Positions 16,487 to 59,679 of a DNA stretch of 64,000 nucleotides are shown here, piece by piece. The DNA lies in sequence record PZ019086.1, one strand, 5' to 3'. The stretch is from a phage. Position 1 is the stretch's first letter. Each line of letters starts with the position of its first letter. The translations under genes and the position numbers were made by a program. The notes beneath the pieces were generated by a model. It was given only the letters and a program-made list of their open reading frames with translations. It was not told where the DNA came from and searched no databases.

Positions 16487-17347
16487 TTACACCGCCATCT
16501 TTCCTTTAATTGGCGGGTGAGATACATAGTTGTTAAGAACAAAATTATGCGGCTTTGCGAATTGACTCAACCAAAATACCTGCGATTCTGTGTCCCATTC
16601 ATCAAATTCATCTGGAAATTTTAATTGTAATTCGCATAAATCCATAGGTTCACGACGCAAAATTTCTTTACATTGTTCTACGTGATTCATATAGATATGA
16701 GTATTACCACCAGAAAATATCAAATCTCCAGGAATAAGATTACACATCTTAGCTACAATATGAACTAACGCAGCATATGATGCAATGTTGAATGGCAAGC
16801 CCAAGAACACGTCAACACTTCTTTGATACCACTGCAAATCCAAATAGCCATTACGCACATTAAACTGATAGAACATATGACAAGGCGGTAATGCCATATA
16901 TTTAAGTTCAGCTGGATTCCATGCAGAAACAATTTGTCGCCTATCATTTGGTAGTTTTTTAATACGATCAATAACTTCTACAATTTGGTCTACACCACCA
17001 AAATCACGCCACTGTTTTCCATAAATTGGACCAAGTTCACCACTATGATATCCTAAATCTTTTGCTTGATTTTCGTAATTTTCATCCCAGACTGTTTTGC
17101 CTTGAATTAATGAATCATGTTGAATTAATCGTAAATCATTTACATTTGTGCTTCCCGATAAAAACCATATTAGCTCAGCAATGCAAGCTTTCCAGGCGAG
17201 CTTCTTAGTCGTTACTGCAGGAAAACCTTTAGTTAAATCCCAGCGTAATTTAGTACCGAACAAAGCAATTGTTCCTATGCCTGTTCGGTCATCGGTTTCA
17301 TAGCCATTTTCAAAAATGTCTTTAATTAAATCTTGGTATTGTTTCAT
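16487..17347 (-). CDS. td: thymidylate synthase, uninterrupted
   Basis: 286 aa continuous ORF with full ThyA sequence (…ALPPCHMFYQF…); no intron. Confidence 0.95.
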   Translation of the reverse strand: MKQYQDLIKDIFENGYETDDRTGIGTIALFGTKLRWDLTKGFPAVTTKKLAWKACIAELIWFLSGSTNVNDLRLIQHDSLIQGKTVWDENYENQAKDLGYHSGELGPIYGKQWRDFGGVDQIVEVIDRIKKLPNDRRQIVSAWNPAELKYMALPPCHMFYQFNVRNGYLDLQWYQRSVDVFLGLPFNIASYAALVHIVAKMCNLIPGDLIFSGGNTHIYMNHVEQCKEILRREPMDLCELQLKFPDEFDEWDTESQVFWLSQFAKPHNFVLNNYVSHPPIKGKMAV

Positions 17348-17392
17348 TTAGTACCTTATATAAATTATAATACATTTTATGAAGCTAAATAA

Positions 17393-17752
17393 TCAATACG
17401 GTTTAGCATCAAATTTTCTTTCAATTTCAGGCGTGAAATATAATTCTTTACCACGTTTGGAAAAGCGACCAATAATATGATAATTATTCTCATCAAACGT
17501 GATATTGCCAATATCCATAGCTTTCAACCAAATATCAATATTTCTGTCAAGCTTTATATCAAAATTCCAATACGGAGAACTATTACCGAAAATACTGCAA
17601 GCGGATTCAGTGAAACAACTGCTATAAATCTTGTCTTTAGGAACTACTAATTGATAGACGCCTTTAATAAACTGAGGACCCTGCCATTTTGGCTGTTTCG
17701 CGTCTTTTTCTAATAGAATAGGATAATAATTAAAGTTCATATTTTCCGCCAT
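17393..17752 (-). CDS. hypothetical protein inserted between frd and td
   Basis: 119-codon ORF filling the frd-td interval. Confidence 0.45.
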   Translation of the reverse strand: MAENMNFNYYPILLEKDAKQPKWQGPQFIKGVYQLVVPKDKIYSSCFTESACSIFGNSSPYWNFDIKLDRNIDIWLKAMDIGNITFDENNYHIIGRFSKRGKELYFTPEIERKFDAKPY

Positions 17753-17760
17753 GCGTTATT

Positions 17761-18587
<827 letters not shown>

Positions 18588-57543: not shown

Positions 57544-57789
57544 TTAACCACCAGTTACTTTCCACAAATCTTCATTTGCAGTAATCCATTCAGTACGTTG
57601 ATTTTCTTCATATACAGTAGTATATGCTGCTTTTTCTGAAGGGAATATCTGATAATGAGCGCCAGAAATTTTGTGAACGTCAGAATAAAGAGGGAAAGCT
57701 ACAGAAATTTCTTTTCCTTCAATTTTCTTATTTCCATCTAATTTCTGCTCAAATGTTTTAATATTAACATAACCGCGAGTACTAGCCAT
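57544..57789 (-). CDS. soc: small outer capsid protein Soc
   Basis: 81 codons; matches T4 Soc (MASTRGYVNIKTFEQKLDGNKKIEG...). Confidence 0.9.
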   Translation of the reverse strand: MASTRGYVNIKTFEQKLDGNKKIEGKEISVAFPLYSDVHKISGAHYQIFPSEKAAYTTVYEENQRTEWITANEDLWKVTGG

Positions 57790-57819
57790 GTAATTCTCCT
57801 TTTATTTAAATTACATGAC

Positions 57820-57827
57820 TATTTATA
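57820..57827 (-). promoter_or_regulatory. late promoter TATAAATA for soc
   Basis: exact TATAAATA on the minus strand 31 nt upstream of the soc ATG. Confidence 0.65.
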
Positions 57828-57861
57828 ATAAATTCTCACAGCTTTTAAGCTGTCGTTTATA

Positions 57862-58380
57862 TTAATAACCTCGGTCTTGACGTTCAAAATTATGCTTGTT
57901 CTTCAGATAATAAAGTTTAAAGATTTCTTCAGCAGTAAGACCGAGACCTTGGAACATGTTCAGAACGAAATGAAGAATATCAATCATTTCGAATTTAATT
58001 TCCAATTGGTCTTGTGGTGACAAATCAGTAATTAGAGTTTCACGACGTTCACCATGCTGTGACTTCCAAGGTTTCCATACAGCAGATGCATCTTTTTCAC
58101 CATTGCTCATACCGCCAAGAGAAGTCAGAAGTTCACGGAATTCATCATCAATGTAATCTTTCTGATTACGCAGCCAATCAACAACTTCACCTGCAGTAGC
58201 CAAATCATCAGGATGACGGTTATATTCAGGTTTATCTTTAGCTAAACGAACCTGCAGAGATTTCTGCATATCAAGCATAACCTGCAGCGGGTCTTTTTCA
58301 TCACCGAGAATATCCCAGTATTCATTTTGAGCTTTATCAGCGCCTTCGATCAGTTGTGAACATTCATTAAAGTAAGCCAT
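57862..58380 (-). CDS. 56: dCTPase / dUTPase
   Basis: trimmed to MAYFNECSQLIEGADKAQNEYWD...; 172 aa; MazG-like fold. Confidence 0.9.
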   Translation of the reverse strand: MAYFNECSQLIEGADKAQNEYWDILGDEKDPLQVMLDMQKSLQVRLAKDKPEYNRHPDDLATAGEVVDWLRNQKDYIDDEFRELLTSLGGMSNGEKDASAVWKPWKSQHGERRETLITDLSPQDQLEIKFEMIDILHFVLNMFQGLGLTAEEIFKLYYLKNKHNFERQDRGY

Positions 58381-58414
58381 TATTTTTCCTTTCAATTCAT
58401 GGGTTAGTAGATTA

Positions 58415-58440
58415 ATTATACAATAAATATATAAAGCAAT
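58415..58440 (-). promoter_or_regulatory. middle promoter for gene 56 (MotA box plus -10)
   Basis: minus strand ATTGCTTTA, 11 nt, TATAAT. Confidence 0.55.
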
Positions 58441-58453
58441 AAGGAGGATATAT

Positions 58454-58654
58454 ATGGTACAAAAATTAATGGCACTTGTAGATGCCATAAAAGGTAATAA
58501 AAGACGTATAGCTTTTACTATTTCTGCTATGGTAGGAATTTTACTTTGGAATTTTGTTTTATCGCCAGTTGCTATTGCTCATGGTGTTAGTATTCCAGTA
58601 ATTACTCTCGATACATTCGTAGATTTAGCATTTGCTTTAGTTGGGTTAATTTAA
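58454..58654 (+). CDS. small predicted membrane protein on the opposite strand
   Basis: 66 codons; AAGGAGG 6 nt upstream of ATG; two hydrophobic segments; sits in the 56-61 intergenic interval. Confidence 0.35.
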   Translation: MVQKLMALVDAIKGNKRRIAFTISAMVGILLWNFVLSPVAIAHGVSIPVITLDTFVDLAFALVGLI

Positions 58655-59679
58655 ATCTTAGCATATTTAGATAGCCGCATTTTGGCCATCAACCCTTGGG
58701 CAATATTATTTTTCATATATTCCATAATTTGTTCAGGGGTTGCACCTTCCTTTCTAATCATATCATTAACATCTTTTGATTTCCAGGGAGATTTGTCCCA
58801 AAACATAACCCTTTCTCCTGCATCAACCAATTTAGTCATTCGTTTAATAGTATCAGGGTGACGAGGTTCATTATCTAAAACCCATACACGTCTATCTTTA
58901 AATGGAACAATTTCTAGGTCTAATTGACCACCCGTAATAGCTATACCATTTTCAATAAAAAGTGAATCTATAGGTCCTTCTAGAACATATACATCACCAT
59001 CTTTGACTCGTTCAACTCCATAAATTTTTGTTGCCTCAGGATAAGCTTTGATTGTGATATATTTTTGAGGAGCATCTTTCTTTAATGCACGCCCTTGAAA
59101 AGACTCAGCTTTTCCATTAGCATTATAAATTGGAATAACAAGACGAGGCTCAGGTATTTCCTTTTTATATGTTCCTGGTGCTATACTATTAACTAATTTA
59201 GGCCATTCAGTTGTAAACCAAAGATATTTCCATTTATCCTTTGGAATACAACGGGCTTTTACATATTTTATAATTGGATGGTCTTCCGCCAGTTTATCTA
59301 ATCTAATGCATGACGGAAGAGATTTAATTATTTTCTTCTCAGGTTGTTTAGGAAGTTCTTTAGGTTTTTCTACTGGACGACTTTTACCTTTTTCTTTTCT
59401 TATTTCAAAGATATACTCACGATATAAATCAGGTTCAAACTCCTTTAAATATATTCCGATTGGTGCATGATAGTTGCAGTTATAACAATGAATATTTCCT
59501 TCATTATTATCACCATAATACCATCCACGGGCTTTATTTTGGTCGGTTTTTGAATCTCCACAAACAGGGCATCTAAACCGTAATTTAAAAGTTGAACTAT
59601 TATTTACTTGTGTGAATTTAGGTAAATGAGCCAATGCACGGTATGCAAACTCATTATCAATCCAAGGTATTGATGACAT
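58651..59679 (-). CDS. 61: DNA primase
   Basis: 342 aa; N-terminal zinc ribbon C-P-V-C ... C-Y-N-C and TOPRIM (V-L-E-G-P-I-D-S) region. Confidence 0.9.
   Translation of the reverse strand: MSSIPWIDNEFAYRALAHLPKFTQVNNSSTFKLRFRCPVCGDSKTDQNKARGWYYGDNNEGNIHCYNCNYHAPIGIYLKEFEPDLYREYIFEIRKEKGKSRPVEKPKELPKQPEKKIIKSLPSCIRLDKLAEDHPIIKYVKARCIPKDKWKYLWFTTEWPKLVNSIAPGTYKKEIPEPRLVIPIYNANGKAESFQGRALKKDAPQKYITIKAYPEATKIYGVERVKDGDVYVLEGPIDSLFIENGIAITGGQLDLEIVPFKDRRVWVLDNEPRHPDTIKRMTKLVDAGERVMFWDKSPWKSKDVNDMIRKEGATPEQIMEYMKNNIAQGLMAKMRLSKYAKI

Follow-up and report, generated by a model that had tools for sequence, protein, structure and literature searches.

The closest described counterparts of the locus analysed here are the regions between gene 56 and gene 61 of the T-even phages T4, T2 and T6. 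The T4 reference places dam (16846-17625) between the two genes and annotates oriA at the gene 56 promoter. Classical work describes a phage-induced DNA methylase in T2 and T4 infections and is not known to do so for T6. T2 carries dam in the same interval, and the complete T6 genome (AP018814, 168,697 bp) contains nothing homologous to Dam: the best match, over 47 residues, has E 0.059. Sporadic deletions and acquisitions are a well-described source of variation among T-even-type phages (PMC2993671).

The window, by which we mean the whole stretch of phage DNA that was analysed, is a T4-like (Tequatrovirus) segment. It covers 64 kb of its phage genome, and the other ~104 kb could still contain a dam gene, so T6 serves as the whole-genome precedent for a dam-less layout. 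The region around the gap between genes 56 and 61 matches many T-even phages of Escherichia and Shigella at 95-97% identity, and the phage collection contains no exact counterpart of the window (best match 96.9% over 12 kb). A tblastn search of the 64 kb with T4 Dam returned no homologue (best E 2.2), and the DPPY motif is absent from every frame. The original prediction, made from the DNA alone, had seen no methyltransferase in the window and had stated that T4 carries dam and an origin between 56 and 61. Both statements are correct, and the comparison with T4 and T2 that it proposed finds dam between these genes in both phages. We consider it highly probable that the interval is a dam-less, T6-type allele of a polymorphic T-even locus, composed of the gene 56 middle promoter and a conserved small plus-strand gene shared with T4 and T2. 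The T4-like phage of the window simply lacks the optional dam cassette, as do T6 and most sequenced relatives.

Layout of the 56-61 interval and distribution of dam

The gap between genes 56 and 61 measures about 270 bp, and its plus strand carries a 66-codon ORF with an AAGGAGG Shine-Dalgarno sequence 6 nt from the ATG (Table 1). The ORF is antisense to its surroundings, as every neighbouring gene in the ORF list is on the minus strand. Its ribosome-binding site abuts the minus-strand MotA box of the gene 56 promoter with no base in between. The translation has a GRAVY of 1.28 and contains two hydrophobic segments, at approximately residues 19-42 and 45-66. The original prediction had described this arrangement accurately, including the two hydrophobic segments and the abutting signals. 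The ORF is convergent with gene 61, and the two stops overlap by 4 nt, the TAA of the ORF meeting the stop of gene 61 inside the palindrome TTTAAA.

Table 1. Coordinates of genes and predicted signals around the 56-61 interval of the window
Feature	Position	Strand	Basis or remark
soc	57544-57789	minus	ORF list
Gene 56 (dCTPase/dUTPase)	57862-58380	minus	ORF list and tblastn with T4 gp56, 75% identity
Gap between gene 56 and gene 61	58381-58650		
-10 hexamer TATAAT of the predicted gene 56 middle promoter	58420 to 58415	minus	aligns with the -10 annotated in X01416
Late-promoter-like box AATAAATA, A(-13) variant of TATAAATA	58422-58429	plus	predicted transcript start ~58435
MotA box ATTGCTTTA of the predicted gene 56 middle promoter	58440 to 58432	minus	matches the mot-box ATTGCTT annotated in X01416
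Point matching the dam-cassette site of T4 and T2	58440..58441 (approximate)		flank comparison of window, T4, T2, PYps55T, T6 and Sso113
Shine-Dalgarno AAGGAGG of the small ORF	58441-58447	plus	6 bases ahead of the ATG, read from the sequence
Small ORF, 66 aa, phrog_2024 / RB32ORF030w family, predicted small membrane protein	58454-58654	plus	
Terminator-like hairpin ATGGCA...TGCCAT and T-run	58488 to 58459	minus	terminator scan
Gene 61 (DNA primase)	58651-59679	minus	ORF list and comparison with T4 gp61, 99% identity

On the far side of gene 56, soc adjoins at a distance of 72 nt (57790-57861). This junction lacks segF, which T4 and VR7 have, and also the soc.1/soc.2 ORFs that are present in T2, T6 and Shigella phage vB_SsoM_113 (Sso113). 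The gp56 of the window is only 75% identical to that of T4, whereas its gp61 is 99% identical, which indicates that the 56-61 interval holds a sharp mosaic boundary.

Flank comparison reveals that the alleles of this locus differ by the presence or absence of a dam cassette of 0.9-1.5 kb (0.9 kb in T4, 1.5 kb in T2). In both phages the cassette sits between the MotA box of gene 56 and the late-promoter box and ribosome-binding site of the small ORF. T2 and Yersinia phage PYps55T carry dam, an extra ORF of 181-186 aa and the small ORF. The dam-less layout occurs in T6, in Sso113, in several IMG/VR contigs and in the inspected Mosigvirus and Gaprivervirus loci. T6 (AP018814 15638-17453) and the RB32-type Sso113 share the gene order of the window, with gene 56, a promoter region of 71-73 nt, the plus-strand ORF and gene 61, and no dam. 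Their upstream sequence is almost equal to that of the window, including AATAAATA within the promoter spacer, but in the window the distance from the Shine-Dalgarno sequence to the ATG is two bases longer.

A Dam at least 90% identical to that of T4 occurs in 182 phage records. Matches below 80% identity are, among those listed, mostly from Klebsiella, Enterobacter, Cronobacter, Erwinia and RB49/RB43-type phages. The small ORF is found at the Tequatrovirus level, at least 80% identity, in 503 records. Among Tequatrovirus records the dam-less layout is thus commoner than the dam-carrying one (roughly 500 vs 182).

The additional ORF of the T2-type cassette lies immediately upstream of dam in T2 (PV648364 66002-66547) and in PYps55T (segment 1841-2401, minus strand). 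Pfam gives this ORF, which T4 does not have, a weak match to the DpnII (GATC) restriction endonuclease that stays below threshold (E 0.005-0.01) and covers profile positions 152-235 of 278. This similarity suggests that the T2-type dam cassette is what remains of a GATC restriction-modification module. In Yersinia phage vB_YenM_P8 the small ORF and gene 61 are separated by an inserted homing endonuclease gene (segment 2780-3547, minus strand). The contents of the 56-61 interval therefore vary from nothing to dam, dam with a nuclease-like ORF, or a homing endonuclease, which marks it as a repeated insertion site.

The small plus-strand gene and its predicted product

The small ORF matches phrog_2024 over its full length (E 8.8e-30), with residues 2-66 on profile positions 1-65 of 65. 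This is a hypothetical family that includes the names RB32ORF030w, under which the protein is annotated in Sso113, and VR7ORF033w. The proteins that bear these names equal the window ORF in size and position, with no material difference. A tblastn search with the small ORF found 693 phage records; besides the 503 at the Tequatrovirus level, 190 match at about 45-55% identity, and 686 of the 693 matches cover at least 80% of the query. Homologues that are 45-52% identical occupy an unchanged position in Mosigvirus (ZQ3), in Gaprivervirus (VR7) and in vB_YenM_P8, and none of these three phages has dam at its 56-61 locus.

The comparison covered 19 loci in three genera, namely the window together with eight phages from GenBank and ten contigs from IMG/VR. 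In all of them the ORF keeps its plus-strand position beyond the gene 56 promoter, in convergent orientation to gene 61, and a Shine-Dalgarno sequence with a GGAG core is retained in 19 of 19. Residues invariant across genera are M1, L5, L8, AIKG, WNF, P38, A42, G44, P48, V56-D57, A61 and L65. Pairwise Nei-Gojobori dN/dS ratios are 0.15-0.45, and between genera the synonymous sites are saturated while the frame and the length (65-66 codons) are retained. An ORF with an ATG start and at least 66 codons appears by chance in 81 of 5000 shuffles of the segment. Because length alone recurs at this rate (1.6%), the coding claim rests on conservation. We conclude from the pattern of substitutions that the small ORF is a real protein gene under purifying selection, and that it belongs to a conserved, hypothetical family that was already known.

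The family appears to be confined to these phages: among 1.84 billion representative proteins, a search with its profile HMM gave only seven matches. Six of these are short proteins or fragments (44-72 aa), and a marginal match to a protein of 1255 aa (E 4.9e-4) was disregarded. The search returned no remote homologue that would give a functional lead. Pfam yielded only a sub-threshold match to DUF6124 (E 0.09) and NCBIfam none. Literature searches on the ORF and on RB32ORF030w retrieved no transcript, ribosome-profiling or mass-spectrometry record in any phage.

T4 encodes the same gene. Listing the ORFs of the T4 locus identified a plus-strand ORF (NC_000866 17738-17938) in the 309 bp that separate dam from gene 61 (17626-17934), whose 66-aa product is 91% identical to that of the window. 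The two phages have in common the ribosome-binding site, the 4-nt stop overlap with gene 61 and an upstream ATAAATA box. In T4 the 780-bp dam gene and a further ~110 bp stand between the ORF and the gene 56 promoter, whereas the ORF of the window adjoins the promoter. The T4 reference records NC_000866 and AF158101 leave the ORF unannotated, and the exact T4 protein sequence is found in the protein collection from raw assemblies only, where it has no NCBI name. This omission from the T4 annotation counts against our preferred reading of the interval. So does the T6 sequence, in which ATT stands where the other phages have the ATG start (AP018814 16228-16230) and the record begins the CDS at the internal Met6.

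Product names in the T6 record AP018814 are systematically unreliable: gp56 is called a 'ferredoxin', Soc a 'terminase small subunit' and a 91-aa ORF a 'DNA methylase'. For this reason the name that it gives the small ORF, 'putative head morphogenesis protein', carries no weight. VR7 has an unannotated second copy of the ORF after the first (segment 2702-2898, plus strand; …FLWNLLVVPIAATQGVHLPQV…), whose diverged C-terminal part runs into gene 61. It may be a decaying tandem duplicate.

The product is probably a membrane-bound protein, a prediction on which the structural model, the hydropathy and the distribution of charges agree. An AlphaFold2 model built from an 11-sequence alignment has a mean pLDDT of 76 and contains helices at residues 2-12, 16-42 and 52-63; a Foldseek comparison of this model with the PDB gave no match. 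Residues 1-18 include five basic and one acidic residue, and residues 43-66 two Asp and no basic residue. The amphipathic N-terminal helix and a KGNKRR cluster would hold the N-terminus in the cytoplasm, followed by a long transmembrane helix (approximately residues 16-42) and a short acidic C-terminal helix that would lie at the periplasmic face. The model and the charges fit an N-in orientation with the C-terminal helix on the periplasmic side, and a protein of this kind, made late, would act at the envelope.

A cleavable Sec-type signal peptide, with a basic n-region, a hydrophobic h-region, small residues at -3 and -1 and a helix breaker near -5, is one possible reading of this sequence. 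The KGNKRR cluster is followed by about 20 hydrophobic residues and then by P38, A40 and A42 before H43, and P38 and A42 are the invariant members of this group. The Pro38/Ala40/Ala42 pattern resembles a site for signal peptidase (I). The n-region would, however, comprise 18 residues, and the h-region is long enough for an uncleaved membrane anchor.

Promoters and predicted expression

The gene 56 promoter reads ATTGCTTTA-N11-TATAAT and can be aligned to the mot-box and -10 by which X01416 marks P(M)16.53 of T4, the gene 56/oriA promoter. The ATTGCTT core lies 13 nt from the -10, compared with 14 in T4. With a TGCTT core approximately 12-14 bp upstream of a sigma-70 -10, this minus-strand element is predicted to be a MotA-dependent middle promoter.

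Early and middle transcripts of T4 are all counterclockwise, and late transcripts may have either polarity (PMC2988020). The small ORF is read clockwise, so late transcription is its expected mode. T4 late promoters have the consensus TATAAATA, from which the commonest deviation is A at -13 (9 of 50 sites), and G or C at this position is rarer than A among the listed promoters (PMC2988020). Nolan et al. describe the -13 position as poorly conserved in relatives (PMC1524935). Late genes that depend on gp55 have a TATAAATA-type box at about -13 to -6 and no -35 element. The box of the small ORF is of this type and falls within the spacer of the opposing middle promoter.

In each of the 19 loci NATAAATA precedes the start codon of the small ORF by 24-32 nt, and it does so in three different upstream architectures. 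The window, T6, Sso113 and the Mosigvirus loci have the box as AATAAATA, dam-carrying phages such as T4 have it as GATAAATA, and Gaprivervirus, VR7 included, as CATAAATA. The G or C at -13 in the T4 and VR7 forms counts against reading the box as a late promoter. WATAAATA, which covers the late consensus and its commonest variant, occurs at 13 sites on both strands of the window, compared with 22.4 expected, and 98 of 100 shuffles contain at least 13. One of the other sites is the known position of the soc late promoter. The scarcity of the motif is consistent with an avoidance of spurious late promoters. Judged by the polarity and the conserved box, the small ORF is probably expressed late.

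The organization of the small ORF resembles that of T4 late genes embedded in early regions, such as soc in the same window (TATAAATA promoter at 57820-57827). In both, a late box some 25-35 nt ahead of the ATG is followed by a short leader with a strong Shine-Dalgarno sequence, and the product is small. They differ in that soc has a perfect TATAAATA at a mapped promoter and is counterclockwise, whereas the small ORF has a predicted box of the A(-13) variant and is clockwise. In the mechanism that we propose, RNA polymerase with gp55 would start at the AATAAATA box (58422-58429) late in infection, and the short leader of the transcript would carry the strong Shine-Dalgarno sequence. The terminator scan detected no plus-strand site after the small ORF, so the transcript probably continues antisense into gene 61.

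The same scan identified a minus-strand hairpin downstream of gene 61, in which ATGGCA...TGCCAT is followed by TTAATTTTTGT. It lies inside codons 2-12 of the small ORF; every one of the 11 Tequatrovirus loci retains it, and those of Mosigvirus and Gaprivervirus lack it. The hairpin may be a weak terminator between gene 61 and the next unit, and it could account for part of the sequence conservation at the Tequatrovirus level. No Rfam family was found in 58200-58800.

Alternative readings and biological meaning

The original prediction went on to propose that this phage had replaced its dam locus with a gene for a small membrane protein. T4 does have dam at the matching place where the window has none, and an exchange of cassettes would produce this difference. 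The exchange is ruled out by the T4 and T2 loci, which hold both genes: the same 66-aa ORF accompanies dam in the same place against gene 61 in T4, T2, PYps55T and two IMG/VR genomes, so ORF and dam coexist. As the ORF is also present in other genera with no dam at the 56-61 locus, it is a resident of the interval and not an incoming gene. We give the exchange next to no probability. The suggested swap did not take place, and dam-less intervals are widespread. A related question is whether the allele of the window arose by deletion from a dam-carrying ancestor, rather than dam having been inserted later in the T2/T4 lineage. In the window, T6 and Sso113, the late box lies inside the gene 56 promoter spacer, the MotA box touches the ribosome-binding site and 73 nt separate the start codons; in Mosigvirus and Gaprivervirus the late box follows the MotA box and 82-90 nt separate them. 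The tighter spacing of the window type could be a secondary compaction after an imprecise loss. Deletion is nevertheless doubtful, although we regard it as possible, since other genera have the dam-less layout and the DpnII-like remnant beside the T2-type dam looks like part of an acquired restriction-modification module. The T4 allele cannot be converted into that of the window by a single deletion. We considered a simple deletion across the 7-bp ATTAATT repeats on either side of the T4 dam cassette and rejected it, as its predicted product mismatches the window junction. The flanks identify the window and T4 alleles as old and diverged.

The plus-strand ORF could also be untranslated, with the interval conserved for its DNA or RNA signals, whether a gene 61 terminator, the oriA/gene 56 promoter or a late RNA antisense to the primase mRNA. 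The terminator-like hairpin within the ORF and the omission of the ORF from the T4 reference annotation are compatible with this. So is the predicted extension of its transcript through gene 61 in the antisense direction, where the scan saw no terminator on the plus strand; certain sites of T4 are known to be transcribed from both strands, at different times (PMC2988020). We consider it quite unlikely, given that frame, length and Shine-Dalgarno sequence are kept at 45-52% amino-acid identity with synonymous sites largely randomised and dN/dS at 0.15-0.45. The protein is conserved outside Tequatrovirus and the hairpin is not, and no Rfam family matches. If the ORF is translated, its product might be a holin or a pinholin-type lysis protein, being small, hydrophobic and probably late, with one or two membrane segments where a holin has at least one; one UniRef entry indeed names a homologue 'Holin'. 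That name carries no weight, because the protein ends in LVGLI (C-terminus ...FALVGLI) with no charged, hydrophilic tail, and because its neighbours are genes 56 and 61, with no adjoining lysozyme, spanin or t gene. Pfam and NCBIfam contain no holin match either, and a lysis protein of this type is very unlikely.

With the interval read as a dam-less allele that retains a conserved small gene, a function for the product can be proposed only tentatively. We speculate that this unannotated late gene of the T4 group encodes a signal-anchored or secreted envelope peptide of 66 aa (mature form approximately 24 aa) with a late role, and that its transcript might damp the primase mRNA, a combination that we would call rather improbable as it stands. 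Its role might then lie, for example, in the timing or the inhibition of lysis or in the control of superinfection.

The 56-61 interval illustrates the dense packing of signals in T-even phages. About 110 bp (58380-58490) hold a predicted middle promoter that doubles as an origin, a putative late promoter on the opposite strand within its spacer and a terminator-like hairpin within a coding region. With no Dam of its own, this phage is predicted to depend on the host for GATC methylation of its DNA. More broadly, a small gene under purifying selection in approximately 700 phage genomes from three genera will be missed by screens and proteomics built on the T4 annotation.
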